Source: an uncultured Eubacteriales bacterium (lineage in GTDB: Bacteria > Bacillota > Clostridia > Christensenellales > Aristaeellaceae). Taken from it: DNA of 53,461 bases. The stretch lies in contig CACXHF010000315.1 in assembly GCA_902767305.1 (NCBI GenBank), forward strand, positions 1 through 53,461, in the 5' to 3' direction. Position numbers and translations under genes: made by a program. This document shows positions 2,371 to 53,247 of the stretch, in pieces (the first letter of the stretch is position 1; each line of letters opens with the position of its first letter). The notes below the pieces were generated by a model. It searched no databases and was not told the origin of the DNA. It saw only the letters and a program-made list of their open reading frames with translations.

Positions 2371-2403
2371 CAGTTTTCTGTCCCTGGGTATTCCCATAAC
2401 GGG

Positions 2404-2940: not shown

Positions 2941-2964
2941 GGTGTTTTTCCCCTTTCACGCGTC

Positions 2965-4655: not shown

Positions 4656-4727
4656 TGTCTTTCTTTCTTTCTTTATGTATAATTGTTTTCTTTGAAAAGA
4701 TGTAGCATCAGAATACGTCATTTTGAT

Positions 4728-7136: not shown

Positions 7137-7233
7137 TCTGGTCTGCTTTCCTAAACTAGTCTCCCGGGTACAAGGTTACCTGAGTTCATCAAAGCCCTCC
7201 GCTGACTTCAGAGGACCTGTTGCGGCATTCAAA

Positions 7234-7452: not shown

Positions 7453-7546
7453 GAAATCTCCTCTGTTTTTTTTCGTTCCGTACTCTGCGTGCTGACCAAG
7501 TCGGTCCAAAGCCGGGATTTTCATTCTCCCTCATCGACCGGCCTGT

Positions 7547-29624: not shown

Positions 29625-29669
29625 CCCGTTCACTCTCCTCTGTCGCCTGCTCTGACTCTGAAACCAGAA

Positions 29670-31361: not shown

Positions 31362-31712
31362 CCCTTTTGTCCTCCTCATCCTCATGCCTGATCTCCGGAA
31401 AAGATGATAACAGATTCTGCTATCGTATCAGCGGCGCACCATGTTCGAATTCTCCGCAAAATATCCTGTTCCATGGCACACATTCCTTATGCATTATATC
31501 GAATTCAAGGGGAAGAATCAAGGCGGAGAGACCCGCCGTTATCCCTGTATGATTCCACTCCCTTTAAATTTTTCCTGTTTCCCGGCTTCTGCCTTTCTCC
31601 TGTTCCGTTTTATCTCCTCCGGTTTTTGACTGATCTACAGATTAAACGAAAGAATGCCCTGGAATACCCTCCTGTTTTATACGACAGGTATCTTCCTTTT
31701 TTGAATAATCTG

Positions 31713-31961
31713 TGTTAGAATACTGCCACCTGCTAAGAAGGAAAGAAGTAGGCCTGCCAAACCTCTTGCAGAGAGTACCCGGCTGGTGGAAGGGTACAGA
31801 GGCGCAGACTGAATACATTCCGGAGCATCATCCCGAACGGTTCAGACCAAGTAGGCGATGACGGGTCTGCCCGTTACAGCTGCCTGGAGGGGCTAACGCC
31901 TGAACCAGAGGTGGTACCACGATAAAATCGTCCTCTGTCCCATTTGGGACAGAGTTTTTTT
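31713..31961 (+). promoter_or_regulatory. T-box riboswitch leader (Tyr specifier) with an extended -10 promoter, controlling tyrS
   Basis: TGtTAGAAT at 31713-31721. Stem I carries the AGAGAG and GGTGGAA elements. The specifier-loop context is GAA-TAC-A, with TAC at 31814-31816. The T-box sequence AACCAGAGGTGGTACCACG lies at about 31903-31921. The terminator is ctctgtccc (31933-31941) / gggacagag (31946-31954) followed by T7. Confidence 0.8.
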
Positions 31962-32002
31962 CGTACAGGGCTGCCGGATTGTACAGGAAAGGAAGAAAGA
32001 AC

Positions 32003-33223
32003 ATGCAGATCTATGAAGAATTGCAAAAGCGCGGCCTCATCGCGCAGGTCACTGATGAACCCGAAATACGTGAACTGATCAACAACGGTGGTGCGCGCTT
32101 CTATATCGGATTTGATCCGACAGCAGACTCGCTTCATGTCGGCCACTTTATGGCACTGTGCCTCATGAAGCGTCTGCAGATGGCGGGCAATCGTCCGGTT
32201 GTCCTGCTTGGCGGCGGTACCGGATATATCGGCGACCCGTCCGGCCGGACCGACATGCGCTCCATGATGACCCCCGAAACCATTCAGCACAACTGCGAAT
32301 GCTTCAAGAAGCAGATGGAGCGGTTCATCGAGTTTGGCGACGGAAAAGCCATTATTGTCAACAATGCAGACTGGCTGCTCTCCCTCAACTACATTGAGCT
32401 TTTGCGCGAAGTCGGTGCACATTTTTCCGTCAATAATATGCTTCGCGCCGAGTGTTACAAACAGCGTATGGAACGCGGACTCAGTTTCCTTGAGTTTAAT
32501 TACATGATCATGCAGGCCTATGACTTTCTGCACCTGCATACCACCTATGGCTGCAACATGCAGTTCGGCGGTGATGATCAGTGGTCCAACATGCTGGCAG
32601 GAACTGAACTGATTCGCAAAAAGACAGGCGATGACGCATATGCCATGACCATCACTCTGCTGATGAACAGTGAAGGCAAGAAGATGGGCAAGACCGCCAA
32701 AGGTGCGGTCTGGCTTGACCCCAACAAAACCACTCCTTTCGAATTCTACCAGTACTGGCGCAATGTCAACGATGCAGATGTCATGAAATGCATTCGCATG
32801 CTGACCTTCGTCCCGATTGAGCAGATCGATGAAATGGAGCACTGGGACGACAGCCGGATCAATGAGAAAAAAGATCTGCTGGCCTACGAGCTGACTGCTC
32901 TGGTACATGGCAACGAGGAAGCCGATAAGGCACGCGATGCTTCTCGCGCTCTGTTCTCAGGTGCCGGTGATGATTCCAATATGCCGACCACCATTCTGAG
33001 CGCAGAGGAAGCCGGAAAAGGCATGACCGTAGTTGACCTCATGATGCGCCTCGGTCTGGCCAAGAGTAAAAGTGAAATTCGTCGGCTCGTTGAGCAGGGT
33101 GGTGTAACCATCGACGGGAATCCCGTTGCCTCTTTTGACACACTGGTTCCGGGCGATGATCTTGTCAGAGGCGTCAAGATCCGCAAGGGCAAGAAAGTTT
33201 TCCATAAGGCAGTTATCGGCTGA
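32003..33223 (+). CDS. tyrS: tyrosine--tRNA ligase
   Basis: Start at MQIYEELQKRGL. HIGH-type motif (LHVGHF), KMSKS-type motif (KMGKT) and a C-terminal S4 domain. The T-box leader has a matching UAC codon. Confidence 0.95.
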   Translation: MQIYEELQKRGLIAQVTDEPEIRELINNGGARFYIGFDPTADSLHVGHFMALCLMKRLQMAGNRPVVLLGGGTGYIGDPSGRTDMRSMMTPETIQHNCECFKKQMERFIEFGDGKAIIVNNADWLLSLNYIELLREVGAHFSVNNMLRAECYKQRMERGLSFLEFNYMIMQAYDFLHLHTTYGCNMQFGGDDQWSNMLAGTELIRKKTGDDAYAMTITLLMNSEGKKMGKTAKGAVWLDPNKTTPFEFYQYWRNVNDADVMKCIRMLTFVPIEQIDEMEHWDDSRINEKKDLLAYELTALVHGNEEADKARDASRALFSGAGDDSNMPTTILSAEEAGKGMTVVDLMMRLGLAKSKSEIRRLVEQGGVTIDGNPVASFDTLVPGDDLVRGVKIRKGKKVFHKAVIG

Positions 33224-39942: not shown

Positions 39943-40536
39943 TTACAGTCCATTGACGAAGTGACGCATCACATAGCCAACTTGTTCCGTTTCCGGTACC
40001 TGCACTTTGACCCACACACGGTCAACTGCCAGAAGCAGCAGAACCTGGTTTTCATACAGGTACTTTGCTACCGGTTCACTTCTGGACGGGCCGGTCCGCA
40101 TGTTGACAAATCCACCCTTTCGGGCAGGTGAAATAGATACAATCACCGGTTCCGCCAGTTCACGCATCGCAGGATAGTAGGTATGAAGCGGTGTCGTAGC
40201 AAGCGGATAGTAGGTAGATACATAGCGGCTCTGTACAAAACCGGTCAGTCCGTCTACCTCAACCTTATAAAATTTCTTCCATACGCCAACAACCTTAAGC
40301 TCGGTCCCCGGATCCAGTTTTTTAAGAACCCGTGCGCCGAACTGCGGATGTTCCCGCAGATTCAGCCGTGCACCAGCTTTTTTGGTTTTGACATAGCCGG
40401 TAAAGCTCTCAATCTCCTGAACCTCATAATTCAGTTTGGATGTCTTTTTAGCCTCCGCCGCTACAGCTAACCCACTCAGACTGACCATCAGGAGCACCAT
40501 AAGGCAGATCAGTATACGCTTCATCCTGTTCATCAT
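39943..40536 (-). CDS. secreted protein with two SH3b-like domains
   Basis: Signal peptide MKRILICLMVLLMVSLSGLAVAA. SH3b-like segments GARLNLREHPQFGARVLKKLDPGTELKVVGVWKKFYKVEVDGLTGFV and GFVNMRTGPSRSEPVAKYLYENQVLLLLAVDRVWVKVQ. Confidence 0.75.
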   Translation of the reverse strand: MMNRMKRILICLMVLLMVSLSGLAVAAEAKKTSKLNYEVQEIESFTGYVKTKKAGARLNLREHPQFGARVLKKLDPGTELKVVGVWKKFYKVEVDGLTGFVQSRYVSTYYPLATTPLHTYYPAMRELAEPVIVSISPARKGGFVNMRTGPSRSEPVAKYLYENQVLLLLAVDRVWVKVQVPETEQVGYVMRHFVNGL

Positions 40537-40673: not shown

Positions 40674-42377
40674 TCAGTAGACTGCATTGAGACCGACAAA
40701 CCTGAACGGCTTCTTTTCCTGTTCAAGCTCAGTCAGAACGATATCCAGTGCCTCTGCTGTATATACTGCAGTATCAGAGAAATGCATAACGATAACTGCT
40801 CCGCTCCGGATGTTCCTCTTGATCTGCCGCGCCAGCGTTTCTGCACTCTCCGCCTTATAGTCACTGGAAGTATAGAACCCGGAAATACTGTGTGTAAATC
40901 CACAGTCAAACACAGCGGTCAGACCTTTTTTGCCGACAGCAAGCGTTGGTGGCCGGAACAGAAGACTCAGAGAAGCCTTTCCGTTGGCATCACGCATATC
41001 ACCTATGACATCCTGCATCGCATTATAGCTGATAACCATGTCATCGCGCAGTTCTTCTGCCTCTTCATCACTCAGCTCCGCATAATTTGTCCCTGTGATT
41101 TCGTTTGAAAGTTTCAGATGTTGATGCGTATGGCAGCCAATGGTATGTCCTGCTTTGGCAATTGCCCGTAAAAGGTTCGGATTATACGGCATGTATTGCG
41201 TACGTACAAAAAATGTCGCTGTCGCATGGTGTTTCTCCAGTACCTGAAGAAGCTGGTCCACTGTTCCATCCGTTCCCCAGTCGTCAAAGGTCAGGAATAC
41301 CATGTTCTCCTCATTGGGAATTAACCCGCGTTTGTCCATTTTCTGGATTTCCGAAAGCTCAAATCCCGGGAGAAACCGGCGGCTGTTGACCCAGTCTATT
41401 CCCACATATCCCTTTGTAATACGCTCCATGATTTCCTGATCGGACAGACCATCAAGATATCCGGGATGAATCCGGTCAAGCACCTCGGACAGAATCCGGT
41501 TTCGGGGCACCGGATAGGTATACCTTTCCGCCACGTCAGCGGCAACCATTGCCGCAGACTGAACCGGATAGACACAGTTGGTTTTAATCAGTGCATTCAG
41601 CAGTTCAGGAAGCAGAAAATCATTATGCTGAATCAGGCCCATCTGAAAGTGAACAATCTCACCTCTCTGGAATTTTCCATCATTGACCGATACAACAAGA
41701 GGAAGAGCATCTTCGACGCTGGTCATGCGGGTAATATTCTGAGAAACAACCTCTTTCATCTGTGAAAGGACTTCAAGTCCACAGGAACCTGCAGCGTTCA
41801 AAAGGACCTGAGAAGCAGCGCCGTATGTTGAGCGTACAAAGATCTGTTCATTTTCTCCAAATTCACTGCGAAGCAGATCGCTGGCCGCCATCAGTTTTTC
41901 TTTGAGAGCACTCACACTGGTATGCGCATCCGGCTGAATGGAGAGTCCAAGATTATGTCCGGCTTTTTTAATTGCATGTACCAGATCACTGCTTTTTTCG
42001 AGTTCATCCAGAGTGACGAAAAAAGTCGCACTGCTGCCCGTATTTCTGAGAACATCCAGCACACCATTGACCTCCGTCACGTTAGTGAGGCCGGAAAACG
42101 TAAAGACAGTGGCACGCCGGGTCGTATAAAACCGTGGCTTCACCTCTGCCCGGATGTACCCGTCAGTCAGCTCTTCGTATTTTTTCACTTCCTGTGTCTG
42201 TACCGTCGGTTCTACTGCCTCGTACGGCCGATACAACTCCTCCGGCATGATCTTCGTTTCCTTCTTCTCCGGAAACTGTATCGGATTCCGGATAAAATAG
42301 AAACCGATTCCGATAAATGCCGTAGTCAGCACCAGCAAAAACACCATCAGAAGAATCTGACGACCTTTTCGATTCAT
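40674..42377 (-). CDS. membrane-anchored protein with two CE4 (NodB) polysaccharide deacetylase domains, the first degenerate and the second canonical
   Basis: N-terminal TM helix ILLMVFLLVLTTAFIGIGFYFI. Domain 1 has FTFSG in place of TFDDG. Domain 2 has LTFDDWG, GHTIGCHTHQH, LFRPP and VIVMHFSD. Confidence 0.85.
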   Translation of the reverse strand: MNRKGRQILLMVFLLVLTTAFIGIGFYFIRNPIQFPEKKETKIMPEELYRPYEAVEPTVQTQEVKKYEELTDGYIRAEVKPRFYTTRRATVFTFSGLTNVTEVNGVLDVLRNTGSSATFFVTLDELEKSSDLVHAIKKAGHNLGLSIQPDAHTSVSALKEKLMAASDLLRSEFGENEQIFVRSTYGAASQVLLNAAGSCGLEVLSQMKEVVSQNITRMTSVEDALPLVVSVNDGKFQRGEIVHFQMGLIQHNDFLLPELLNALIKTNCVYPVQSAAMVAADVAERYTYPVPRNRILSEVLDRIHPGYLDGLSDQEIMERITKGYVGIDWVNSRRFLPGFELSEIQKMDKRGLIPNEENMVFLTFDDWGTDGTVDQLLQVLEKHHATATFFVRTQYMPYNPNLLRAIAKAGHTIGCHTHQHLKLSNEITGTNYAELSDEEAEELRDDMVISYNAMQDVIGDMRDANGKASLSLLFRPPTLAVGKKGLTAVFDCGFTHSISGFYTSSDYKAESAETLARQIKRNIRSGAVIVMHFSDTAVYTAEALDIVLTELEQEKKPFRFVGLNAVY

Positions 42378-42380
42378 AGT

Positions 42381-43397
42381 TTACTCCCTGTCAAGATTAC
42401 CGTACACATTTAATTCAGATACAGGCTCCGTCTTTGCCTGAAGGAACTTTTCAAGTGATTCCGTTTCATTTCCGGAAAGCCGGAACAGATCGAAGTGATG
42501 ATACCCCATTTTTTCCAGATGCTGACGCCATGTCAGCAGGGTCGTTCCATCCGCATACCAGAGGGTCCCTCCGGTTTTACCGGGAATCTCCGCCTTCATC
42601 GCTCCACTGTCAGAATCACGTTCCGGTTTTACACCGTTTTCTGCAAGAAATTCGACAGCATCTTTTTCTCGAAGTGCCCGCACAACTTTCCCTGAGTTCC
42701 AGAGAAATCCACCGGTTGAAAATGCCATACGCACCTTTCCGGGAACACTCTGCCAGTTAGTTCCGACCTCGCTCAGAAAAGGAAGGTCCGCTTTAGGCCC
42801 TGGTCCGCTGTGATAGCCATACAGGTTATAACACATACAGATATACTCCGGTCCCTCCGGCAGTGAACAGTAGATCGGTGCAGTACATTCGAGAACCACC
42901 CGAAGCGCAATGCCGTCCCGGCTGAGAATCGCATGGAGTCGCGTGATAAAGGCAGCAAAGTCCGCCCAAAGCTCCTGATCCTTTTTTAAATTCTCGTAGT
43001 CGATCTCAAGCCCTGCCAGATGACAGGTATCCACCAGCTTGAGAATCTCGTCAATATGCATTCTCTGTGCATTCTCGCCCTTAAGGTGTTTTATCAGAAA
43101 ATCCTTCGATTTCTGGACGATTTTTCCGTCCTCTATCTCGACATCATTAACCAAAGATAAATAGACATTCGGACGCTCAAGTGTCTGAAGCATGTTTTCA
43201 GTCTCCTCAGGCAGAATCACCGTTCCGTTCTGAGAAAAATATGCCTCGAAACAGATCACCTCATCCAGACTGCTCTCAAATCTGGCAGCTTCCTCCAGTG
43301 CGCCATCCGCATCCCAGTAGGTCAGCCACGCACCGTTTTCCATCAGTCCGTCAACAGGAACAAGCAGTAGCAGCAGAAACGTCAGTAGTTTCCTCAT
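42381..43397 (-). CDS. secreted GH18-like glycoside hydrolase
   Basis: Short signal peptide. AGLEIDYENL aligns with the GH18 DGxDxDWE motif: the catalytic Glu and the neighbouring Asp are kept, while the first two Asp are replaced by Ala and Glu. Confidence 0.65.
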   Translation of the reverse strand: MRKLLTFLLLLLVPVDGLMENGAWLTYWDADGALEEAARFESSLDEVICFEAYFSQNGTVILPEETENMLQTLERPNVYLSLVNDVEIEDGKIVQKSKDFLIKHLKGENAQRMHIDEILKLVDTCHLAGLEIDYENLKKDQELWADFAAFITRLHAILSRDGIALRVVLECTAPIYCSLPEGPEYICMCYNLYGYHSGPGPKADLPFLSEVGTNWQSVPGKVRMAFSTGGFLWNSGKVVRALREKDAVEFLAENGVKPERDSDSGAMKAEIPGKTGGTLWYADGTTLLTWRQHLEKMGYHHFDLFRLSGNETESLEKFLQAKTEPVSELNVYGNLDRE

Positions 43398-43410
43398 TCG
43401 TCTCCTCCTG

Positions 43411-45318
43411 TTATTTAAACAGATTTCTGAAAATGCGAATTACACGGTCCACAAAACCGACATTGGTTATCGTTTCCTCCACCGATTCTGCATAGGAGTA
43501 TACCTCAGGTCCGATGGAACTCGAAATCCGCAGATCCCTGAAAACAGCATCATAGACATCATCGGAAAGGTTTGTCTGGCTGAAGCGTTCATTATCCATG
43601 GTCACCTGAGAACCCAGTACCAGCCGTGTTCCTCTGCCTTCTGATACCTTCAGGTGATCGATAATCAGTCGGTCATCCAGCCAAAGACTGATCCGTGACC
43701 CTGAGCACTGAATCCGCAGCTGCCGGTCGTCCTGTTCATCGATATCCAGTTCAGGAATAAACGGCTCTGCGCCTTCTTGAATTGACAGAACACGAAGGGT
43801 ATTCAGATAATCCAGATTTGTCTGTGCCTCTGCCCGGCGTGCCTCATCCTCATCGTAAGCAATGATCGCCTCACAGCAGGCGATTTTCCCTGCCAGTTCG
43901 TTTTCCGGGACAGATTCATACGGACCTCCGTCAAATTCCAGGAGATCCAGTTCAAAAATCGGAGCATCTCCCGACGGATCATAGATATAGAGACAGTTAT
44001 TATGCAGGCATACAGTTACCCCGCCTTCACCGTTTTCATCCGTCTTCATCGAGATGGACTGCTGACCTACCACATTTCCCTGCAGCCGGACGCTCAGTTC
44101 AAAATCAGGCGGCAGCTCCTTGCCAAGAACAATCGTTCCTTTTCCGTAAGGCATGGAAGTCAGAATAATCCGATGATCAGAATATTCTGCAACACCCTCA
44201 AGACGCTCCCAGGCTTTTGCCTGCTCTTCATCTCCAAGACGGAACATGACCTGATGTCCGGTATCGTCCCAGATTCTCATCATCAGATGATTTGCTGAGA
44301 AATACTGTCTGGATTGCAGGCGGGACAGATCATACACTGAGGAATCCATCATATTGAGGCAAGTCCCCTGCCGGTTGAAATTCATGCCGAAGACCTTCTG
44401 CATCATTTCTTCATTCTTGCGGCTTACCAGCGGGTCGTTCCCATATGCCCCGGTATTGGAATGCATCAGAATATAGAGTGAGGGAACAAAGCCGAAATCC
44501 TGATTGTACAGTTCAGCCATTTTTCCATAATCCCATTCGATGCGCTTTTCCATTTCCTCCACCGATTCCTGACGGAGACGATTTTCATCCCGAAGAAAAT
44601 CCATGAGATAATGGTTGTAATCACGCCTCAGATAATGATGCACTTTCAGAAACTCCGCCGTATTCATGTGCCCGAAATAGTTTTCATAGCGGTCAAATAT
44701 GTTAATGTAGCTGAGCCGGTATCCATTGGATCCCATCTCCCAGTAGGAGGAATCCATCAGTTCACGGGCAGACTTGCCCGTTACATACAGATTTTCAGTG
44801 TCGGACAGATTCTCTGCATAGGTACACATGGTGGCTTTGTAATTACACGCTTCAAGGGTTGGCTGAACCCATATGGCGCTGTCATTGATGCCGTCTTCAA
44901 AAATCAGCAGCATCGCTTTTTCCGGCAGATTGGCCCCATTCTTATACGCCCGCAGGATATCCTCCTGGGAGATCGTCTGATAACCGGATGCCTTCAGAGT
45001 CTGCATCTGTTCCTTGAACGCCTGAAGATTGACAATCTTGCCGCCTTCAATAGGCTTTACTACCACTCCATTATATGCAAGAGCTATGAAATGCGTTCCT
45101 GAGGCATGTCCCATGCTATCATATCCCTCTGTAATCAAATCGGAGGGAATCATGGTACTCTCATTTGCCGGCGGCAGGGCACTTGGATTGGATCGTGATT
45201 CTTTATAACTTTTCAGAGATAAAAACACCCATACAACAGCGAAAATCATGACCAGCAATTCAAAAACAGTCCGAATTACTTTCAGTCGGTTTTTTCGCCG
45301 CAGCCATCTGTCATCCAT
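43411..45318 (-). CDS. single-pass membrane protein: variant CE4/PgaB-like deacetylase domain plus a C-terminal beta-sandwich-like domain
   Basis: TM helix VFELLVMIFAVVWVFLSL. LAYNGV aligns with the usual MYH.V, and LLIFEDGINDS with TFDDG. The C-terminal approximately 250 aa were not assigned to a family. The start overlaps the synthase stop (ATGGATGA). Confidence 0.7.
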   Translation of the reverse strand: MDDRWLRRKNRLKVIRTVFELLVMIFAVVWVFLSLKSYKESRSNPSALPPANESTMIPSDLITEGYDSMGHASGTHFIALAYNGVVVKPIEGGKIVNLQAFKEQMQTLKASGYQTISQEDILRAYKNGANLPEKAMLLIFEDGINDSAIWVQPTLEACNYKATMCTYAENLSDTENLYVTGKSARELMDSSYWEMGSNGYRLSYINIFDRYENYFGHMNTAEFLKVHHYLRRDYNHYLMDFLRDENRLRQESVEEMEKRIEWDYGKMAELYNQDFGFVPSLYILMHSNTGAYGNDPLVSRKNEEMMQKVFGMNFNRQGTCLNMMDSSVYDLSRLQSRQYFSANHLMMRIWDDTGHQVMFRLGDEEQAKAWERLEGVAEYSDHRIILTSMPYGKGTIVLGKELPPDFELSVRLQGNVVGQQSISMKTDENGEGGVTVCLHNNCLYIYDPSGDAPIFELDLLEFDGGPYESVPENELAGKIACCEAIIAYDEDEARRAEAQTNLDYLNTLRVLSIQEGAEPFIPELDIDEQDDRQLRIQCSGSRISLWLDDRLIIDHLKVSEGRGTRLVLGSQVTMDNERFSQTNLSDDVYDAVFRDLRISSSIGPEVYSYAESVEETITNVGFVDRVIRIFRNLFK

Positions 45319-47131
45319 TTGCCATCACCCCTGCCTGCGTAGATCCGATCGAACCTTCCCCGGGATCATTCTTCACTGCACGCTTCTTTCCTTTTCCACG
45401 GGTGCCCCAGTCATTGACCCAGAACGTCACCCATGCCCAGGGCATCTGCCAGAGCAGGAAAAACTCATAATACAGACAGAACAGCAGACCATAAATCCAC
45501 AGCGTGCTCTTTTTGAGAATCAGCTGTGCAAAGCACATCATGAGTGACATCATGAGCAGACCAAGCAGGAATGTCGTCGGAAATATCTGATGCACAATCG
45601 GAATATAAACGACATTGTACAGAACAATCACCGGAGCAATCAGCGGAACCAGCAGACCAAGATAGAAGAAAAATGACATGAACGGCTGCTTGCGCCAGAT
45701 GAAGCGCCCCGCCCGCAGTGACTCTCTCAGCCAGGACCGCTTCCAGCGCATCTGCTGACGGAGGAACTGCCGATGACGGTTTGGAACGATGGTCGAACAG
45801 ACGGCCGTATCCTGATAATACGTCCGGTGATGCTCTACCACATAGTTGGTCAGACTCCGGTCATCACCGAATGTCGCTTTCTGCCCAAGGAATTTCTGAT
45901 TAATCCACTTGTCAAACACCTCACGGACAGCGGTGATCCGGTAACAGGAAAGCGGGCCGCTCAGACACATGACGGAATCGAAATAAGCCTCTGCTGCCTT
46001 CATGACACGGAAAGAGATATAATAGCGAACCGCCTGCATTTTAGTCAGGTGATTCGTGTAGATATTAGCCACATCTGTCCGTCCTGCCACACCGGCTGTC
46101 TGGGGATCACGCATGGGCTGCACCAGACAGCGAATGGCGTTAGGCTGCAGGAAACTGTCCGAATCCACAAAGACAATCAGGTCAGTCCGACAGTTCCGGA
46201 TACCGATACCCATGGCCTCACGTTTGCCCTGATTGTACTTCTGAAAAAACACCCGAACCCTGTTTTCAATATCGTACTGCGGACCTTCTTTTCGGAGATC
46301 CTCAACGGTTTTCTTGATTACCTCCGCCGAATTGTCAGAAGAACCGTCATCCACAATAATGAATTCCAGCTTATCCACCGGATAGTCCTGATCCACACAC
46401 TTGAGGATAGTTGTCCGGATCCATTCCTCCTCATTAAAACAGGGAATGACCACGGTTACGCTGGGTGTGAAGTTCGGATCCACGGGTATCGGGCGGTAGA
46501 ACACACCAAACAGATACCTCGTCAGCAGGAACAGTGCCGTCAGGATGCTGTACCCGTAAATCATCGGACTTTTGGCAAACTCCGCAATGCTCTCCACCCG
46601 CATGAACATGATTATTAATGTACACAGAAACAGGAACAGAACAGAAAGGGTAAAGAGCAGGCCGTCGGTTTTCCGACGCTCTTCATAGAGAGGATGGGAA
46701 AACTGGATAGCCAGTTTTTCCCTGTCGCCGATAACCCGCATGATTTTTGCTGATATCTTTTTGTATTTCTTTTCTGTTCCCTCCTGCAGATCCCCTTCCT
46801 GCAGGCGGAAAGTCAGTCGAAGATGCTGTTCTTTTTCAAAAGGAACATTACGTACCTCACGGGGAACTAAGAGCATCATCCCGGTCTGCGAAATATCGAT
46901 CGTGGTTCCGGTAAAGCTGTTCCCGTTATCAAGCAAAACCCGAGTATCGACATGTACATTGAAGCGCTGTCCTGCATAGGTGGCATACTGGGGTCTGGAT
47001 TCATCGTCCGACTTGTTGTCCCGCCGGTCATGATTGCTGCGACGGTTGGACGGATCCGGAACATTGGGCATCAGTCTGCGATCCCCCTGCGCCTCAAGTA
47101 TGCGATCCTCGATAACCTTCTTTTTTTTCAT
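45311..47131 (-). CDS. PilZ-like domain fused to a HasA/NodC/chitin-synthase-like processive family-2 glycosyltransferase (putative c-di-GMP-gated polysaccharide synthase)
   Basis: 606 aa. The N-terminal approximately 150 aa carry an Arg-rich NRRSNHDRRD stretch and DISQTG (the DxSxxG motif). Two TM helices follow, then the GT2 motifs VVIPCFNEE, VDDGSSD, VDSDS, GDDRSLTN and QQMRWKRSW, then about four C-terminal TM helices. Confidence 0.85.
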   Translation of the reverse strand: MKKKKVIEDRILEAQGDRRLMPNVPDPSNRRSNHDRRDNKSDDESRPQYATYAGQRFNVHVDTRVLLDNGNSFTGTTIDISQTGMMLLVPREVRNVPFEKEQHLRLTFRLQEGDLQEGTEKKYKKISAKIMRVIGDREKLAIQFSHPLYEERRKTDGLLFTLSVLFLFLCTLIIMFMRVESIAEFAKSPMIYGYSILTALFLLTRYLFGVFYRPIPVDPNFTPSVTVVIPCFNEEEWIRTTILKCVDQDYPVDKLEFIIVDDGSSDNSAEVIKKTVEDLRKEGPQYDIENRVRVFFQKYNQGKREAMGIGIRNCRTDLIVFVDSDSFLQPNAIRCLVQPMRDPQTAGVAGRTDVANIYTNHLTKMQAVRYYISFRVMKAAEAYFDSVMCLSGPLSCYRITAVREVFDKWINQKFLGQKATFGDDRSLTNYVVEHHRTYYQDTAVCSTIVPNRHRQFLRQQMRWKRSWLRESLRAGRFIWRKQPFMSFFFYLGLLVPLIAPVIVLYNVVYIPIVHQIFPTTFLLGLLMMSLMMCFAQLILKKSTLWIYGLLFCLYYEFFLLWQMPWAWVTFWVNDWGTRGKGKKRAVKNDPGEGSIGSTQAGVMANG

Positions 47132-47145
47132 AGATCTTCCTCTGT

Positions 47146-48705
47146 TTACTCTGGCATATGCATCTGAACAAAGGACAGGAATGTCTCACATCCGGCATCA
47201 TTCAGATGCTTTCCGTAAGTCACTGCATCCAGACAGTACGAAGCGTCCAGTGCACCCGTCTTGTCACGAAGGGGAAATGCGGCGTCCACAAATCCCAGAC
47301 CGTACATTCTCGCCATGGCACATAACATCAGATTCAGTCTGAATCGCTGTTCATTTCCGATACCTGTGTAGCCCTCAAGACGTGGTGGAATACTCATCAC
47401 GATAATTCGGACATCCGGATTCTGCTTGCGAATGCGGTAAATCAGCAGCCGGTAATTTGTCAGATAAGCCTCCCGTTTATATCCCTCAGAGCTTGCAAAT
47501 CCAAGACACAGCCAGACACTGCGGGGTCTCATCTGCTGCAGACGGTCTTCTATAGGTTCTACCCTTCTGAGAAGTGATTCAACCGTCATATTGTTTTCTG
47601 TCAGGAATACAGCATCCGAGAAATATGATGGGTTGACCTGCCGGCGCCACTGTACATAATCACCGACACCAGCCATTACTGAATCTCCAATAAAGACAGC
47701 ACCGTTGAATTCCTCCTGGGCTCCCGCCCGAGTACGGCCAGCTGTCAGCGGCTCTTCTGTTACCGGAAGCTCATCTTTTTTATACGTAAGAAGTGCTTTT
47801 TCATTCTCACTGAGTTCTCTCTTTTTTTCGAGCAACGTAACATGTGAACTCTCAAGGTCCCCAAGACTCACCAGCTTGAAGCCATCGTTCCTCAGCCAGT
47901 CCACCAGCCAGCCAATCATTGTCGGAAGTTCGACAAATTTTTCATCCGTAGATTCCCATTCCCTGCGAATACCGGGGCTTGGGTCAATCGCCGGCCGTTC
48001 GTCGAGCTTATTTCCCTCATCACCAAACTCGTCTTTATCCAGTTCCTGCCCCAGCTTAACTGAAATAATGCTGCCTAAAATTACAGATTCTGTATAAACA
48101 CCGGCGTCGCCTTCATTTTTAAAACTGCGGTGATTCAGGTATACACTGGGTTCTACCGCTTCTTTTATTCCGGCTGCCGTGACAGCACGAAGAACATCGT
48201 CCGTATATACTGTTCCGTTGCAGCGGATATAGGCAGGACGGGTGCCGACGGCATTTTCGATCAGGTTCTGCGTTTTGGTAAACTGCTCCGCATTCTGATA
48301 CGCAGGCAGCCGTTCCAGCTTTTTCGCCCCGCTCATTCCATAATTTCCGATATCAAATCCCATTTCGGCGACTTTCTTAAGAAGATCTCCATGCTCATCC
48401 GCCGTAACCCCCGACACAAAGAAGGTTGTGGGAACACCACGATCCCGCAAAATCTGAGCAATTGCCTCCACAGTGAGATCGTCTGTATATCCCTCAAAGA
48501 TCAGAGCAACGACTTTCTGATCTGTTTCCACTCTGCTCAGGAGTTTGGCAGGCGCAGCATCAATACGCGGCATCGGCGTCGGTGTTACCCGTTTCACCTC
48601 TGTTTCGGGAATATCCTCTGTCTTCCGTGAAAAGGCTGAACAGCCGGAAATCAGAAAGAGGAGACTGAACAGGGACAGAAGTGCCGCAAACAATCTGTTA
48701 CTCAC
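47146..48705 (-). CDS. lipoprotein: degenerate CE4-like domain plus an SGNH/GDSL-type hydrolase or acyl-esterase domain
   Basis: GTG start at 48705, 5 nt after GGAGG, overlapping the upstream stop (GTGAGTAA). Lipobox LLFLISGC. CE4-like VALIFEGYTDD...TTFFVSG...GFDIGNYGMSG lacks the His-His metal ligands. GDS block AVFIGDSVMAG. Confidence 0.7.
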   Translation of the reverse strand: MSNRLFAALLSLFSLLFLISGCSAFSRKTEDIPETEVKRVTPTPMPRIDAAPAKLLSRVETDQKVVALIFEGYTDDLTVEAIAQILRDRGVPTTFFVSGVTADEHGDLLKKVAEMGFDIGNYGMSGAKKLERLPAYQNAEQFTKTQNLIENAVGTRPAYIRCNGTVYTDDVLRAVTAAGIKEAVEPSVYLNHRSFKNEGDAGVYTESVILGSIISVKLGQELDKDEFGDEGNKLDERPAIDPSPGIRREWESTDEKFVELPTMIGWLVDWLRNDGFKLVSLGDLESSHVTLLEKKRELSENEKALLTYKKDELPVTEEPLTAGRTRAGAQEEFNGAVFIGDSVMAGVGDYVQWRRQVNPSYFSDAVFLTENNMTVESLLRRVEPIEDRLQQMRPRSVWLCLGFASSEGYKREAYLTNYRLLIYRIRKQNPDVRIIVMSIPPRLEGYTGIGNEQRFRLNLMLCAMARMYGLGFVDAAFPLRDKTGALDASYCLDAVTYGKHLNDAGCETFLSFVQMHMPE

Positions 48706-49456
48706 TTTTTCCTCCGGAAACATACACAGGATACTCCCCCGGTGACTGCAGCATCCGAAGGGACCCCATGGTCTTGTCCAGCTCATGCTGGAGATTTACG
48801 AAGCGCTCCTCAATCACCTGGCGGAAACCCATGGCATTAAAATAGGCCGCACGGACAGCAGCCGTTGCCTGTGAACGGACATTCTCCGCATCATCCAGCA
48901 TTTTCTGGCTGGTATCCACCGCTTCCTGAACGATTTTCTGTGCCTTCTGATTGGCCTCCCCCACGGGATTTGACTCAATCATCTTTTCAAGCTGCCCGAT
49001 TTCCTTCTTCATGCTGGCAGCGCGCTGTCCGAGCTGTTCCGCCTGGAGCTGAGCAAAAGAGAGCTCTTCCTTCATGTTTTCCTGTTTCCGGCGTGCCTCC
49101 TCCAGCTCAGCCTGCAGACGTCTGTTTTCTGAAAGACATTTTCTGTTTTCCTCACTGGCACCGGCAAGCCGCTTTTCAAGGTTTCGAATCTCTTTTCGAA
49201 GCATCTCGGCATTCATCTGATCAATCCGGTGTACCTCCGCCGCACGTCCAAGCTGTTCTCCAAGGGCTGCTTTTTCCTGTCTTTCCCGTTCCGCCTGCTC
49301 CCGGAACGACTGACTTTCCTGTTCGGCCGCACGCCGTCTTTCTTCCAGTTTCGCCTCCTGAGATTCCATCTCCTGGTCCAGCTCCGAGAGATACCGGTCT
49401 ACCTCAGCTGCCTTGTACCGTCCGAGAAACTTTCTGAATTCTTTATGCTTTTTCAT
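48698..49456 (-). CDS. DivIVA-domain coiled-coil protein
   Basis: Start at MKKHKEF, after GAGG. The N-terminal FRKFLGRYKAAEVDRYLSEL matches the DivIVA signature F....(R)GY...EVD.FL. About 170 aa of heptad-rich Glu/Arg/Gln sequence follow. Confidence 0.7.
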   Translation of the reverse strand: MKKHKEFRKFLGRYKAAEVDRYLSELDQEMESQEAKLEERRRAAEQESQSFREQAERERQEKAALGEQLGRAAEVHRIDQMNAEMLRKEIRNLEKRLAGASEENRKCLSENRRLQAELEEARRKQENMKEELSFAQLQAEQLGQRAASMKKEIGQLEKMIESNPVGEANQKAQKIVQEAVDTSQKMLDDAENVRSQATAAVRAAYFNAMGFRQVIEERFVNLQHELDKTMGSLRMLQSPGEYPVYVSGGKSE

Positions 49457-49464
49457 TGTTAACC

Positions 49465-50478
49465 TCACAGCAGGAAATATTGAAACACGCGGGATTCATA
49501 GACCATAAAAATAAATGAAGCAATCATGGCAATAAAGAGGAATGTATTGATAAGAGAAAGACGTGGAGATCCGTTATCCGTCTTCTCTTCGTCAGGAATG
49601 GAGATCTCCTCCACCACATGCTCGGTTTCCTCAATCGGTCCAGGAGTCCAGAACTGCGTTCTATCCGGATCATAATAGGTATCCGAACTCCGCTTTTCCG
49701 CCGGAGCTGCTGCAGCCCTGACAGGAGTCTGCGGCGGCACAGAGGCCGGCTGACTGACCGGTGCCGCAGAATCTGCAGATGCAGACGTTTCCGTTCTGAC
49801 GGATCCGGCTGCATCCGAAACAGGCTCGAATGGCGTACTGACAGGTGCTGCTTCAGAATCTGCCTGCCTGTCTCTGGCCAGTTTCTCTTTGCTGTCCGCT
49901 GACACAGGCTGCAGTTCTTCCATCAGGTCACGCCTGTCCGGAGAAGCAGGTCTTACAGAATCTACTTCGTCATTCCGAATAAAAACATCCGTATCCGCTC
50001 CAAAGTAATCGCTGTATGAAACGTAATGAGCCCGTTCCTCCCTGCGCCGTCGCTTCCTGGAAACCGTATTGCTCCGATCGGATTCCTCTGAAAGCTGCAA
50101 ACTCCGCACACTCACCTTATCATCGTATGAAGGTTTTTCGTGATTCCGACGGTATCCCTCAGACCTCTGAATCGTGCTTCTTTCCGGAATGCTGTCTATC
50201 AGCATATGACGTTCGGCATATTCCTTCAGCGATTCTGTGCTGTCCCCTGTGATGCTGAAAATCAAGCATGCCTGTGCGCGGATGAAATAGGTCATATTTT
50301 CCGCTGGAGTTTTGTTTTCATACTCCCTGCGAAGAGACGCCAGCACTACATCGGCCAGCATCATCTGTGTATCTGTACTGTCCGTCCATTTGCCGGCTTC
50401 CTCAAGTGCAAGAAGCTGCCACTTTCTGCGAAATTCTACAAAATTCTCATGAATCGCCAGTCCGTTCACATTACTCAT
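49465..50478 (-). CDS. tail-anchored protein: N-terminal domain of about 100 aa, a long disordered Ser/Pro/Ala/Asp-rich linker, and a C-terminal TM helix
   Basis: 337 aa. The only hydrophobic segment is at the extreme C-terminus (LSLINTFLFIAMIASFIFMVY). No family was recognised. Confidence 0.6.
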   Translation of the reverse strand: MSNVNGLAIHENFVEFRRKWQLLALEEAGKWTDSTDTQMMLADVVLASLRREYENKTPAENMTYFIRAQACLIFSITGDSTESLKEYAERHMLIDSIPERSTIQRSEGYRRNHEKPSYDDKVSVRSLQLSEESDRSNTVSRKRRRREERAHYVSYSDYFGADTDVFIRNDEVDSVRPASPDRRDLMEELQPVSADSKEKLARDRQADSEAAPVSTPFEPVSDAAGSVRTETSASADSAAPVSQPASVPPQTPVRAAAAPAEKRSSDTYYDPDRTQFWTPGPIEETEHVVEEISIPDEEKTDNGSPRLSLINTFLFIAMIASFIFMVYESRVFQYFLL

Positions 50479-50495
50479 CGTCTACCTCGTCGGAT

Positions 50496-51818
50496 TCACA
50501 GCCTCCAGAGAATCATATTCTCCATCTGTTCAAAATCATGCCGATCGAACATGCCCTTTACATCAATCAGAACACGGCAGGCGTTGGTACTCCCTTCGTA
50601 AAACGCCAGTACATCCTCTTTTGACAGCATCCTGTACTGATCATGGGAAACAGCCGCAATCAGGCAGTCCACACCGTGCAGACCTGACATATCTGTCAGT
50701 TCCAGCCCATATTCTCTTCGCACTTCTTCAGGATCCGCCATAGGATCGCAAATAATCGGCTTCACATTGTATTCTTTCAGTTCATCAATGATGTCCACTA
50801 CCCGGGTATTCCGGATATCCGGACAGTTTTCCTTGAAGGTGAGTCCCAGAATCACCACTTTGGAATGACTTGGTGCAAGTCCGGCCCGAGACATCTGACG
50901 AATCGTGGCACGTGCTATGAATTTTCCCATTACATCGTTAACTCGTCTTGCGGCCATTACAATCTGATCGGTAAAACGCTGTTTTTCCGCTTCGTAGACC
51001 AGATAGTAAGGATCCACGCCGATACAGTGGCCGCCCACCAGACCAGGACGAAACCCCAATGCGTTCCATTTGGTATTCATTCCATCAACAACCTCATTGG
51101 TATCGATATCAATGAGATCAAAAAGCATCGCCAGCTCATTCATGAACGCAATATTGATATCCCTCTGGCTGTTTTCTACCAGCTTGATTGCCTCTGCCGT
51201 CCGGATGTTGGATACCGGATATGTGCCTGCCTCAATGATCAGATCATATGTAGAGCGGATCACATTCAGGGATTCAGCATCCATTCCAGAGACAATTTTT
51301 CGGATGTTTTCAAGGCGGTGAACACGATCACCGGGATTGATTCGTTCCGGTGAATAGCCTACCTTGAAATCCCGGCCGCAGATAAGTCCCGATGCCTTTT
51401 CCAGAATCGGCACACAGACATGTTCGGTCACACCCGGATAGACTGTTGATTCGAAAACAACGACTGCCCCTTTTCTTAAATGCCGTCCGACAATCTCACT
51501 GGCCGACTCAACCGGCCTCAGATCCGGTTTTTTATCATCAAAAATCGGCGTAGGAACAGCTACAACAAAAAAACCGGCTTCCGAAAGACGGTTCTCATCA
51601 CTGGTAAATTCCACTTTCGTTCTGCGAATTTTCTCGTTTCCCGCTTCCATTGTCGGATCAATTCCGCTTTGATACAACGCAATTTTCCGGGCATTCACAT
51701 CAAATCCGATGACACCCAGATGCTCTGCAAATGCCAATGCCAGCGGCATGCCCACATATCCCATTCCAACTACTGCCAGCTTGCACTCGCCGGAGAGCAG
51801 CTGCTCATATAATCCCAT
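50496..51818 (-). CDS. nucleotide-sugar 6-dehydrogenase of the TviB/WbpO/CapL type (UDP-N-acetyl-aminosugar dehydrogenase)
   Basis: Motifs: Rossmann VVGMGYVGMPLALAF; IGFDVN..KI..L..G.D; YSPERINPGD; catalytic LVGGHCIGVDPYYL. Confidence 0.85.
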   Translation of the reverse strand: MGLYEQLLSGECKLAVVGMGYVGMPLALAFAEHLGVIGFDVNARKIALYQSGIDPTMEAGNEKIRRTKVEFTSDENRLSEAGFFVVAVPTPIFDDKKPDLRPVESASEIVGRHLRKGAVVVFESTVYPGVTEHVCVPILEKASGLICGRDFKVGYSPERINPGDRVHRLENIRKIVSGMDAESLNVIRSTYDLIIEAGTYPVSNIRTAEAIKLVENSQRDINIAFMNELAMLFDLIDIDTNEVVDGMNTKWNALGFRPGLVGGHCIGVDPYYLVYEAEKQRFTDQIVMAARRVNDVMGKFIARATIRQMSRAGLAPSHSKVVILGLTFKENCPDIRNTRVVDIIDELKEYNVKPIICDPMADPEEVRREYGLELTDMSGLHGVDCLIAAVSHDQYRMLSKEDVLAFYEGSTNACRVLIDVKGMFDRHDFEQMENMILWRL

Positions 51819-51936
51819 TTGTCGGGTTCACTCCTTTTGACTGTCCGTCTGATGGACCGGTTATATCTTTCCGTTCTCCCGACTGCCGGCGTCCTGATGA
51901 CATCCGGCCTGTCGAAGCCCGCATCATGATAATTCT

Positions 51937-51965
51937 ATCATAATCCCCCAGATGCTGTTTATCAA
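51937..51965 (-). promoter_or_regulatory. candidate sigma-A promoter of the polysaccharide operon
   Basis: On the minus strand, TTGATA (51960-51965), a 17-nt spacer, then TATGAT (51937-51942), about 115 nt upstream of the dehydrogenase ATG. Confidence 0.35.
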
Positions 51966-52230
51966 TGGTTCAGGGACGAAAAGCCTGAAAATCGGGACAA
52001 ACTCAACAATCATCCCTTTTTTTCGCTGCACCTGCTCTGCACTAACGTTCGCTCTGGCAGGTACTTTCATCTTCTCGATCCTGAGAAATCCCGTTGGATA
52101 TCCTGTATCTGTATAATAATCTCCCGGCGATATCCTTCCCAAATATAACGAAAGCCAAAGTCATTACCGACTTCAGCTTTTCGTATTTGACAGAAAATGT
52201 ACTCTCTTCGGAAGAAACTGAACGTTTCTG

Positions 52231-53247
52231 TCAGAATACCGTCACTTCGCCGCGTAAACTCTTCTCCATTTTAGAACGGATTTCCTGAACAGTCAATCCC
52301 CGGCTGAACAGATAATACAGCTTTGCTACAGCCGCTTCAGTTGTAATATCATATCCGCTGATCGCTCCTGCCTCTTTCAGTGCACTGGATGTTTCATAGG
52401 CACCGAGGGATACCGTTCCATGCGGACACTGGGAACAGACAATGATAATGGTTCCGTTTTCACAGGCTTTACGGATAATGGGCAGCAGTGAATCAGCATG
52501 TCTCGGGATATTTCCCGCGCCAAAGGTTTCAATGACGATTCCTTTCAGTTTTTCTGTCATGATTGAATCAAAGAGTTCAAACTGAATTCCCGGGAAAACC
52601 TTGATTACTCCAATAGGAATGTTCACCAGCCGTTGAAGAGAAAAGCCTTCCTCGCATGGCGGCAGAAGAGCTGCATGATGATAACGGATTTCAATTCCCG
52701 CATCCGCCAGCACAGGATAATTCGGCGATTCAAAAGCAATGAGATCGTCTGCCGAATACTTAATCGCCCGGTTTCCCCGGAGCAGCTTTCCTCCGAAATA
52801 CAGACACACCTCATGAACGAAACTGCCTGCGGCAATCAGCAGTGCCGTGATCAGATTATCCCGTGCGTCATTACGGACTTCACACAGAGGAATCTGCGAT
52901 CCGGTCAGAATCACCGGCTTGTTGTTTTTCCGGAGCATGAATGACAGGGCTGAGGCCGTATAGGCCATCGTGTCCGTTCCGTGCAGTACGACAAACCCAT
53001 CATAAAGATGATACTGACTGGCGATCCGTTCACCGATGGCATTCCATTCAAAGACAGTAATGTTGGAGGAATCCAGAAGCGGGTCCATATCCACCATATC
53101 CCACTCAGGCATGACCGGTGCTGACAGTTCCGGAATCTGCTTAAGAAGCTCGTGAAACGCTTCCCTCTGCGGGGCATACCCATGCTCTGTCCGGATCATT
53201 CCGATGGTACCACCCGTGTTAATCACAAGAATTCGTTTCCTGCTCAT
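52231..53247 (-). CDS. ansA: L-asparaginase, type I
   Basis: 338 aa with VINTGGTIGM (catalytic Thr) and HGTDTMAYTASAL. Confidence 0.9.
   Translation of the reverse strand: MSRKRILVINTGGTIGMIRTEHGYAPQREAFHELLKQIPELSAPVMPEWDMVDMDPLLDSSNITVFEWNAIGERIASQYHLYDGFVVLHGTDTMAYTASALSFMLRKNNKPVILTGSQIPLCEVRNDARDNLITALLIAAGSFVHEVCLYFGGKLLRGNRAIKYSADDLIAFESPNYPVLADAGIEIRYHHAALLPPCEEGFSLQRLVNIPIGVIKVFPGIQFELFDSIMTEKLKGIVIETFGAGNIPRHADSLLPIIRKACENGTIIIVCSQCPHGTVSLGAYETSSALKEAGAISGYDITTEAAVAKLYYLFSRGLTVQEIRSKMEKSLRGEVTVF

Follow-up and report, generated by a model that had tools for sequence, protein, structure and literature searches.

Synthase-dependent exopolysaccharide systems are few, comprising those for cellulose, poly-N-acetylglucosamine (PNAG), alginate, Pel, Pss, hyaluronan, mixed-linkage glucan and NGR, and each is important for biofilm formation, host interaction or phage sensitivity. 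Among Firmicutes, the Listeria pssA-E, Bacillus subtilis ydaJ-N and Lactobacillus acidophilus gts loci are synthase-dependent and thought or shown to be controlled by cyclic di-GMP (c-di-GMP), with receptors (PssE, YdaK and PdeB) that are separate proteins (PMC4125290, PMC6123363). A survey of such operons by Bundalovic-Torma and co-workers reported PNAG-like loci in Clostridia and a dual PgaB in Lachnoclostridium (PMC7112194). Here we report a system that this survey does not describe, found in a stretch of 53,461 nucleotides (nt) from an uncultured Eubacteriales bacterium (GenBank assembly GCA_902767305.1, contig CACXHF010000315.1), referred to below as the window. Eight consecutive minus-strand genes in the open reading frame (ORF) table, g1 to g8 (40674-51818), are arranged around a glycosyltransferase with an N-terminal PilZ domain. 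Judged by the families of the encoded proteins, the locus is very probably a synthase-dependent system for a polymer based on N-acetyl-hexosamine (HexNAc), and its evolutionarily conserved unit is four genes, encoding a protein with multiple carbohydrate esterase family 4 (CE4) deacetylase domains, the PilZ-synthase, a protein resembling PgaB and carbohydrate-binding module 66 (CBM66), and a glycoside hydrolase family 18 (GH18) protein. In transcription order, the genes are as follows.

g1, 50496-51818, minus strand: predicted UDP-HexNAc 6-dehydrogenase, 440 amino acids (aa)
g2, 49465-50478, minus strand: protein with a C-terminal transmembrane helix, 337 aa
g3, 48698-49468, minus strand: DivIVA-related coiled-coil protein, 256 aa
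g4, 47146-48705, minus strand: predicted lipoprotein with CE4-like and SGNH domains, 519 aa from a GTG start (the longest ORF extends to 48786)
g5, 45311-47131, minus strand: PilZ-fused synthase, 606 aa
g6, 43411-45318, minus strand: PgaB-like membrane protein, 635 aa
g7, 42381-43397, minus strand: GH18-like secreted hydrolase, 338 aa
g8, 40674-42377, minus strand: membrane protein with two CE4 domains, 567 aa

The distribution of the system was assessed by a pattern scan of one genome per Genome Taxonomy Database (GTDB) species, which retrieved g5 relatives in gut and soil Bacillota of at least 545 species, distributed over the classes Clostridia, Bacilli and Negativicutes; genes were mapped on the best 80 of these loci. 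The 80 include Christensenellales, Oscillospiraceae and Lachnospiraceae; Clostridium (C. butyricum, C. sartagoforme, C. aciditolerans, C. subterminale and C. nigeriense), Tissierella and Vallitalea; Lactobacillus equicursoris and Absicoccus; and Selenomonas and Megamonas. The system is also present on a Paenibacillus megaplasmid. Among the matches listed, the nearest relatives of the window are two metagenome-assembled genomes (MAGs), one assigned to Christensenella sp. and the other to Clostridia from roe-deer gut (92% identity). A g6 homologue lies immediately 3′ of the synthase gene in all 66 of the best 80 loci that offer enough sequence, and it is followed by a g7 homologue in 65 of them. 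The g8-type CE4 gene is found in 46 of 47 loci, g4 in 22 and g3 in 14, while g2 is detected in 4 of the 47 by BLAST and in more by synteny. The commonest order is g8-g5-g6-g7, with a CE4 protein of 850-1100 aa that contains two to four CE4 domains. The complete g1-g8 order recurs in six other genomes, all of them Clostridia or Christensenellales-like gut MAGs. Because the g5-g6-g7 order, the g8-type partner and the complete g1-g8 order all recur in relatives, the gene arrangement is beyond chance. The preliminary description of this DNA had proposed an eight-gene exopolysaccharide operon; all eight genes are present in the window, but as a conserved unit the octet does not hold, since the full order is seen solely in MAGs of Christensenellales-like and related Clostridia. 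Instead, g1, g4 and the g2-g3 pair are lineage-specific additions to the four-gene core. In one Bacillota MAG (locus L049, 7351-21761), the core occurs twice in tandem, g8-g5-g6-g7-g8-g5-g6-g7, with synthases 52-53% identical to that of the window.

The g5 protein runs from an Arg-rich arm through a PilZ barrel, two transmembrane helices, a glycosyltransferase family 2 (GT2) core, and interface and transmembrane helices to a WGTR gating-loop motif (residues 575-578).

GT2 core of g5, residues 223-465, nt 45737-46465, minus strand: motifs VDDG, VDSDS, GDDR and QQMRW

Scored against Pfam, g5 reaches 106 bits with Glycos_transf_2 and 86 bits with Chitin_synth_2. The top NCBIfam model is that of NodC (TIGR04242, 185.5 bits, below its equivalog cut-off of 550 bits), while the PgaC_IcaA model (TIGR03937) gives 116 bits against a cut-off of 422 and the CelA model 39.6 bits against 699. 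When solved proteins were searched with phmmer, the Chlorella virus and Xenopus hyaluronan synthases (HASs) were the best matches, with E values near 1e-35 (1e-35 for the Chlorella virus enzyme). Identities determined by tblastn against annotated plasmids are 39.6% for HasA of Bacillus anthracis pXO1, 32-35% for NodC, 23-25% for PgaC/IcaA and 25.6% for Listeria PssC; over the aligned core they amount to 39% for HasA, 33% for NodC, 25% for PgaC and PssC, and 15% for BcsA. A neighbor-joining tree of 266 core columns, which is indicative only given its few references and its lack of support values, recovers the g5 family (members at least 62% identical to the window sequence) as a monophyletic group sister to HasA plus NodC and far from PgaC/IcaA, PssC and BcsA. 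The motifs GDDR, QQxRW and WGTR are common to HasA and the g5 family, where they are invariant; NodC lacks WGTR. An AlphaFold2 (AF2) model of g5, with a mean predicted local distance difference test (pLDDT) score of 81.5, displays two transmembrane helices directly after the PilZ barrel, the GT domain, interface helices and a C-terminal bundle of three to four helices, and Foldseek ranks HASs first (Xenopus HAS1, E = 7e-21, and Chlorella virus HAS; 8smp, 8smn and 7sp7), followed by BcsA and Chs1. By sequence and modeled fold, g5 is assigned as a membrane-integrated processive GT2 of the hyaluronan synthase/chitin synthase/NodC group with HAS-like transmembrane architecture, and the model suggests that it is probably polymerase and translocon in one. 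The identities, the tree and Foldseek thus agree with the initial placement of the synthase beside HasA and NodC and away from BcsA, PgaC and PssC, and the GT2 core does not nest inside a characterized exopolysaccharide synthase family whose locus has the same composition.

Could the locus simply be a has operon with extra genes that directs a true hyaluronan (GlcA-GlcNAc) capsule? HasA is the closest characterized relative of g5 and shares its three signature motifs, solved HAS structures are the top structural matches, and the JGI annotation labels some homologues 'hyaluronan synthase'. This reading is nevertheless very improbable, as the g5 family constitutes a separate clade rather than a branch inside HasA, the linked dehydrogenase is of the TviB type (see below), and the CE4, GH18 and PgaB-like partners are foreign to has loci. 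Moreover, the operon contains no equivalent of hasB or hasC, whereas in pXO1 galU and a UDP-glucose dehydrogenase gene adjoin hasA. The strength of the NodC model, together with the way in which NodC and NodB recall the pairing of a GT2 with a CE4 protein, raises the alternative that g5 makes short chito-oligosaccharides rather than a long polymer, to be deacetylated as by NodB. That seems hardly credible: the NodC score lies far under its cut-off, g5 possesses the WGTR motif and the longer C-terminal helix bundle of channel-forming HASs that NodC lacks, the partner proteins are all extracytoplasmic while NodB is cytoplasmic, and a dedicated endo-type GH18 enzyme and lectin-like domains suit a polymer.

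The gene that invariably follows the synthase, g6, encodes a type-II membrane protein with a transmembrane helix at residues 3-43, and its start overlaps the g5 stop, an arrangement of translational coupling. No Pfam domain was detected in g6, which matches the N-terminal deacetylase domain of PgaB both by sequence and by family profile (profile E = 2e-12). The AF2 model (pLDDT 89) comprises a long N-terminal transmembrane helix, a CE4-like barrel, a CBM66-like β-sandwich with a helical insert and a terminal helix; Foldseek aligns the barrel with PgaB, PplD and IcaB at template modeling (TM) scores of 0.78-0.82 and the sandwich with CBM66 at 0.71. PgaB residues H55, D114, D115, H184 and H189 align to N/F, E141, D142, D209 and N213 of g6, and FDDG is replaced by FEDG. 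Because the His-His ligands and the catalytic His are replaced, the canonical metal site is gone. On sequence and model, g6 is accordingly described as a membrane-anchored protein in which an extracytoplasmic PgaB-like barrel, deprived of the deacetylase metal site, is joined to a CBM66-like lectin fold. This protein bears directly on the idea that the locus is a Gram-positive variant of pga/ica making β-1,6-linked PNAG, for which the resemblance of g6 to the PgaB N-domain, the 116 bits of g5 with the PgaC_IcaA model and the grouping of some Clostridial loci under 'PNAG' in the operon survey (PMC7112194) can be cited. We consider it most unlikely. In addition to the lost metal site of g6, the synthase is only 23-25% identical to PgaC/IcaA, scores far under the 422-bit cut-off and branches with HasA and NodC; PgaD, IcaD and IcaC are not present, and the overlap of g5 and g6 leaves no room for a small gene between them. 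The hydrolase, too, is a GH18 enzyme and not of the PgaB C-domain type.

That hydrolase, g7, is a secreted GH18-like protein in the window and a lipoprotein in most other lineages. As a single sequence it has no match, Pfam included, while a family profile built from 21 sequences retrieves GH18 structures, namely YdhD (3cz8, E = 3e-17) and, as the strongest matches after it, a probable chitinase and YaaH/SleL entries; the Paenibacillus homologue is labeled 'glycosyl hydrolase family 18 protein' by the NCBI annotation pipeline PGAP. The motifs DG(I/L)E(I/L)DYE, MCYNLYG and GPKA are conserved; the catalytic D-x-E pair (D133 and E135) shows no variation, and E131 is almost invariant. The fourth core protein, g8, displays an N-terminal transmembrane helix followed by two CE4 domains (Polysacc_deac_1, 102 bits in two stretches). 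The N-terminal CE4 domain, degenerate throughout 77 aligned sequences, reads TFSG in the window protein and lacks HxxxH there. The C-terminal one has the canonical motifs TFDD (363-366), HTHQH (416-420) and RPP (475-477), and D365, D366, H416, H420, R475 and P477 are kept in all 77 sequences (the window protein and its homologues), so that this domain is predicted to be an active de-N-acetylase. Homologues of g8 in other lineages contain two to four CE4 domains. The accessory protein g4 combines a lipobox (LISGC) with a CE4 domain (Polysacc_deac_1, 63 bits) that is likewise degenerate, with IFEG in place of TFDD and no HxxxH, and with a C-terminal SGNH/GDSL domain (Lipase_GDSL_2, 45 bits) that retains GDS and G.HL.D; across 27 homologues the G is kept in 27, the D in 25, the S in 21 and the H in 27. 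Almost all domain assignments of the preliminary description were verified by Pfam and NCBIfam models, family profiles and Foldseek. Its three CE4 proteins do have CE4 folds (g4, g6 and g8), though intact catalytic motifs occur only in the C-terminal domain of g8.

Outside the core, g1 contains all three UDPG_MGDP_dh domains and passes the subfamily model TIGR03026 with 375 bits against a cut-off of 190. The TviB model (NF011729) is by far its best, at 445 bits, although this is below the equivalog cut-off of 592; UDP-ManNAc dehydrogenase models give 206-212 bits and UDP-glucose dehydrogenase models (TuaD and AglM) 104-153 bits. The nearest solved structures are UDP-ManNAc and NDP-GalNAcA dehydrogenases, both of which are N-acetyl-hexosaminuronic acid dehydrogenases. 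By these relationships g1 is assigned as an NAD-dependent UDP-N-acetyl-hexosamine 6-dehydrogenase of the TviB/WbpO type, and because the operon has no epimerase gene, oxidation of UDP-GlcNAc to UDP-GlcNAcA is the simplest reading of its activity. Linkage of g1 to the core is seen in several positions (upstream, downstream and divergent), and on the Paenibacillus megaplasmid the g1 homologue is an unannotated reading frame adjoining the synthase. Since the two are linked in many lineages and in varied positions, a functional tie analogous to hasA-hasB is suggested. Two observations count against a uronic acid as a regular constituent. A g1 homologue lies within 10 kb of the core in 22 of 47 loci, leaving about half without one, and it is missing from Christensenella sp. 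UBA4263 (locus L002), whose synthase is 92% identical to that of the window; there, the interval between the asparaginase gene and g2 (3638-6313) contains, in place of g1, a gene on the opposite strand for an AAA-ATPase-like protein of 531 aa and another for a PAP2-family phosphatase. In view of these absences GlcNAcA is at most an optional component, and its presence in the polymer of this organism is possible but somewhat doubtful. The earlier proposal of an N-acetyl-uronic acid in the polymer therefore stands as far as the type of dehydrogenase is concerned, but not as a regular part of the system.

The N-terminus of the synthase contains two elements joined by a variable linker.

PilZ barrel of g5, residues 55-151, nt 46679-46969, minus strand: PF07238, 38.9 bits (cut-off 22.5 bits)
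Arg-rich arm of g5, residues 10-38, window positions 47018-47104, minus strand: D..L....DRR(L/I)...VPD....R....(D)RR, kept across 81 synthases

The PilZ domain is located directly before the first transmembrane helix. Its (D/N)xSxxG motif reads DISQTG (79-84), with the S and G kept in 81 sequences; the sequences inspected for the first position have D or N there. In the window, the RxxxR position reads YAGQR, and only the second Arg (R56) is invariant in the 81 sequences; across the family the place of the first Arg is taken by Y, F, K or Q (Y or F in this lineage, often K in clostridia). The arm is represented in the window by DRR 17-19, R31 and DRR 35-37, and AF2 models its residues 11-30 with moderate confidence (pLDDT about 78-83). 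It may be an element particular to this family that binds a ligand or acts in autoinhibition. When residues 1-150 of g5 were searched against 1.84 billion representative proteins, 75 clusters were retrieved in which the match starts within the first 35 or so residues of the protein, P0282 (112-251) being the sole exception, and the arm and PilZ module appears from these matches to be specific to the g5 synthase family.

The module is likely an on/off switch of g5; whether the signal is c-di-GMP is, on the motifs present, an evenly balanced question. The gating by c-di-GMP that had been put forward initially finds agreement in the PilZ domain and its (D/N)xSxxG motif and disagreement in the RxxxR motif, leaving it plausible. 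Several results speak against it. The g5 family lacks a canonical RxxxR before the first strand, a family profile of the N-terminal module found no solved PilZ structure, and Rfam detects no c-di-GMP riboswitch 5′ of the operon (51700-52300). In addition, RiGT2 of Romboutsia, a Clostridial PilZ-GT2 with both canonical motifs, neither binds nor responds to c-di-GMP in vitro even though its PilZ domain is required for activity (PMC10374906), a precedent by which PilZ motifs alone are insufficient to infer binding. Genes for GGDEF or EAL proteins occur near 9 of the 80 loci, which is about chance and hence not evidence. In the window itself, an 855-aa PAS-GGDEF-EAL protein is encoded at 23643-26210 on the minus strand; its GGDEF motif reads GGDDF and is probably inactive, while the EAL domain is strong (200 bits), making the protein a likely c-di-GMP phosphodiesterase by sequence. 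From this gene we infer that the organism uses c-di-GMP.

The same observations feed an alternative in which the chemistry is unchanged but the product is a constitutive glycan of the envelope or division site, such as a secondary wall polymer or a septal or polar structure, and the PilZ-like module is structural or autoinhibitory and does not bind c-di-GMP. The non-canonical RxxxR, the failure of the family profile to find a solved PilZ, the GGDEF/EAL neighbors that are not enriched and RiGT2, with a PilZ that is required but non-binding (PMC10374906), are all compatible with such a glycan, as are the DivIVA-like gene and tail-anchored partner within the operon of this lineage and the fact that the nearest GH18 and CE4 relatives are the peptidoglycan and spore-cortex enzymes YdhD, YaaH/SleL and PdaB/PdaA. 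Conversely, (D/N)xSxxG, R56 and the invariant Arg-rich arm are kept across classes, which argues for a retained ligand site, and the organism has c-di-GMP turnover genes. We regard a constitutive glycan as unlikely, though not to be dismissed lightly. A sporulation-specific function, which the similarity to PdaB, PdaA, YdhD and YaaH might suggest, is ruled out by the occurrence of the core in non-sporulating Lactobacillus, Absicoccus and Selenomonas.

Two further genes, g2 and g3, are lineage-specific. In an alignment of 12 syntenic homologues, g2 starts with a conserved helical domain of about 110 aa and continues through a variable linker rich in Pro and Ala to the motif DTFYDPxRTxFWTPG and, at its C-terminus, a transmembrane helix. 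Comparison with Pfam, NCBIfam and the PDB, in which a profile of 12 sequences was also used, gave nothing beyond low-complexity matches, and no relationship is claimed from an impression that the N-domain resembles sigma-70 region 2; g2 is restricted to Christensenellales-like and related Clostridia MAGs. The window's g3 scores 18.2 bits with DivIVA (PF05103), under the gathering cut-off of 28 bits, while nearly half of its syntenic homologues (8 of 17) do match this family, with a best E value of 1.1e-7. Its coiled coil keeps an N-terminal F..(F/W)..Y...EVD..L motif and a C-terminal AAxRAAYYNAxQFRQ block.

Taken as a whole, a synthase-dependent system for an extracellular HexNAc-based polymer that operates in the manner now outlined is the reading we find likely. 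The synthase g5 would polymerize UDP-GlcNAc and thread the chain through its own channel, probably also using UDP-GlcNAcA made by g1 where that gene is present, as it is here and by analogy with hasA/hasB. At the outer face of the membrane, g6, held in fixed stoichiometric proximity to g5 by translational coupling, may receive or hold the emerging chain with its groove-bearing, catalytically disabled PgaB-like barrel and its lectin-like sandwich, a role similar to that of BcsB or of the PgaB C-domain. The C-terminal CE4 domain of g8 would then strip some of the N-acetyl groups, and g7 would trim or release chains, as dedicated hydrolases do in other synthase-dependent systems. The GH18 mechanism needs an N-acetyl group at the cleavage site. 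In organisms that encode g4, its dead CE4 domain is a probable polymer-binding module, and its SGNH domain may act on O-acyl groups, by attaching them or taking them off. Finally, g2 and g3 would act at the cytoplasmic face, where they may position the machine at curved regions of the membrane; the relationship to DivIVA is the only indication of such localization. For the synthesis, channel, deacetylation and trimming steps, the basis is family membership and conserved catalytic residues, whereas the roles given to g6, g4, g2 and g3 are conjectural.

Some findings weigh against this picture. Catalytic motifs are intact in one of the four CE4-like domains of the window (g8 C-terminal) and absent from the g8 N-domain, g4 and g6, and four of the five catalytic or metal-binding residues of PgaB are not kept in g6, so the role of g6 is a guess. 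Family membership is, furthermore, the sole guide to the identity, linkage and length of the polymer, and the tree that separates the synthase from its relatives is indicative. Partial de-N-acetylation of the polymer is to be expected with fair confidence. A more elaborate version of the favored scheme, in which c-di-GMP switches the four-gene core through a non-canonical bipartite module of Arg-rich arm and PilZ, and in which g1 carriers make a GlcNAc/GlcNAcA copolymer that CE4 action converts into a zwitterionic GlcN+/GlcNAcA- glycan, is speculative and probably wrong in at least some part.

The eight genes are tightly packed, with spacings from g1/g2 to g7/g8 of 17, -4, -8, 14, -8, 13 and 3 nt in transcription order. 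As initially reported, neighboring genes are separated by gaps of 3-17 nt or share start and stop codons, and both overlaps quoted at that time are present in the ORF table. The probable start of g4 is the GTG at 48705, which overlaps the g3 stop (48698-48700) and yields a clean lipoprotein signal, MSNRLFAALLSLFSLLFLISGC. At the g5/g6 junction, ATGGATGA (45311-45318) merges the g5 stop with the g6 start, such that g5 finishes in NG and g6 begins with MDD. This spacing suggests co-transcription of g1-g8. Two signals frame the 5′ end of the operon.

Promoter-like site, 51965-51937, minus strand: sigma-70-like TTGATA-17-TATGAT about 118 nt 5′ of the g1 ATG, from a consensus scan only
Terminator-like hairpin, 52180-52151: at the end of the asparaginase gene upstream of g1

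The promoter-like site upstream of g1 reaches 51965 and accounts for the end coordinate given in the preliminary description. In the region 51700-52300, no Rfam family was detected as a leader RNA 5′ of g1, either at gathering thresholds or at E ≤ 5.

Several neighboring features were recorded. Directly 3′ of g8, a secreted protein with two bacterial SH3 domains is encoded (39943-40536, minus strand), preceded by an extended -10 promoter-like site at 40634-40605; its candidacy as a ninth operon member is ruled out by this promoter-like site of its own and by the lack of synteny in any related locus. About 10 kb from the operon, genes for a phosphoglucomutase/phosphomannomutase and a type-I phosphomannose-isomerase-like protein (28656-31385, minus strand) are possible sugar-precursor genes. 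A T-box leader (31726-31938, plus strand) scores 113 bits, above its gathering score, and is located directly 5′ of a tyrosyl-tRNA synthetase gene (31979-33223). The G+C content of the window changes from 0.44-0.47 in positions 1-8000 to 0.54 at roughly 8-14 kb and then returns towards 0.50.

Carriers of the system include cultured, tractable bacteria, namely C. butyricum, C. sartagoforme, L. equicursoris, Selenomonas ruminantium, Megamonas and Paenibacillus cellulositrophicus, in addition to many gut Christensenellales, Oscillospiraceae and Lachnospiraceae. If the proposed function is correct, the locus would offer a bacterial enzyme, related to hyaluronan and chitin synthases and equipped with its own regulatory domain, in which gating could be studied. 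Its product could be a matrix or capsule polymer of abundant gut anaerobes, about whose surface glycans little is known, and the system might also open a way to new materials that resemble glycosaminoglycans or chitosan.

How the locus relates to described systems can be judged from databases and literature as well as from its components. Neither NCBIfam (June 2026) nor Pfam contains a family-specific model for g5, g6 or g7, and public names of the homologues are generic ('glycosyltransferase', 'hypothetical protein', 'glycoside hydrolase') or the automatic 'hyaluronan synthase'. In PilZ surveys, the only fusions to glycosyltransferases that are mentioned are of the BcsA kind. Full-text searches brought up no account of the system, which is not proof, as most subscription-journal papers lie outside their coverage. 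Together with the separate GT2 clade, these results support the original claim that this set of genes does not correspond to pss, yda, pel, ica/pga or has. The L. acidophilus gts operon was considered as a known equivalent and rejected, since it belongs to another system, which resembles Pss and has a separate protein as its EAL receptor.

The closest catalytic core (39%) is that of the class I HASs and the has operon (Streptococcus and Bacillus pXO1 hasA-hasB-hasC; Chlorella virus and vertebrate HAS), with which g5 shares GDDR, QQxRW, WGTR and the HAS-like fold and helix bundle, and which likewise pair the synthase with a UDP-sugar 6-dehydrogenase. The present locus differs in its N-terminal PilZ domain, in a dehydrogenase that is TviB-type and optional, in its separate clade and in its obligatory extracytoplasmic partners g6, GH18 and CE4; we know of no has locus with partners of these types. 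With the Bcs systems (BcsA-PilZ, BcsB and BcsZ; Clostridial CcsA/CcsZ) the locus shares a general plan, in which a processive GT2 is fused to PilZ, the gene directly downstream specifies an extracytoplasmic partner anchored in the membrane, and a glycoside hydrolase is dedicated to the system. Here, though, the PilZ domain is N-terminal rather than C-terminal and lacks canonical RxxxR, the GT core is 15% identical, g6 is CE4-like and CBM66-like rather than BcsB, the hydrolase is GH18 instead of GH8 or GH5, and the predicted substrate is HexNAc and not glucose. With pgaABCD/icaADBC, the locus has in common the logic of a GlcNAc polymer that is partially de-N-acetylated outside the cell, as well as the PgaB/IcaB fold of g6; it diverges in a synthase of another clade (23-25% identity), a g6 devoid of the metal site and catalytic His, the absence of PgaD, IcaD, IcaC and PgaA, and the presence of GH18. 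The Firmicute loci named at the outset resemble it as synthase-dependent systems, but the partner sets differ: in Listeria, PssC is 25% identical to g5, PssD is BcsB-like and PssB is a DUF2334 protein. The fungal toolkit of chitin synthase, CE4 chitin deacetylase and GH18 chitinase, and rhizobial NodC/NodB, use the same three enzyme families on β-linked GlcNAc, a likeness echoed in the Chitin_synth_2 score of g5 and in NodC as its best NCBIfam model, whereas the system described here is bacterial, operon-encoded and PilZ-fused, and NodC lacks both WGTR and a channel. The locus probably makes an unstudied N-acetyl-sugar surface polymer and, as far as its sequences indicate, would work like the Bcs, Pga and Has machines while being a member of none of them.

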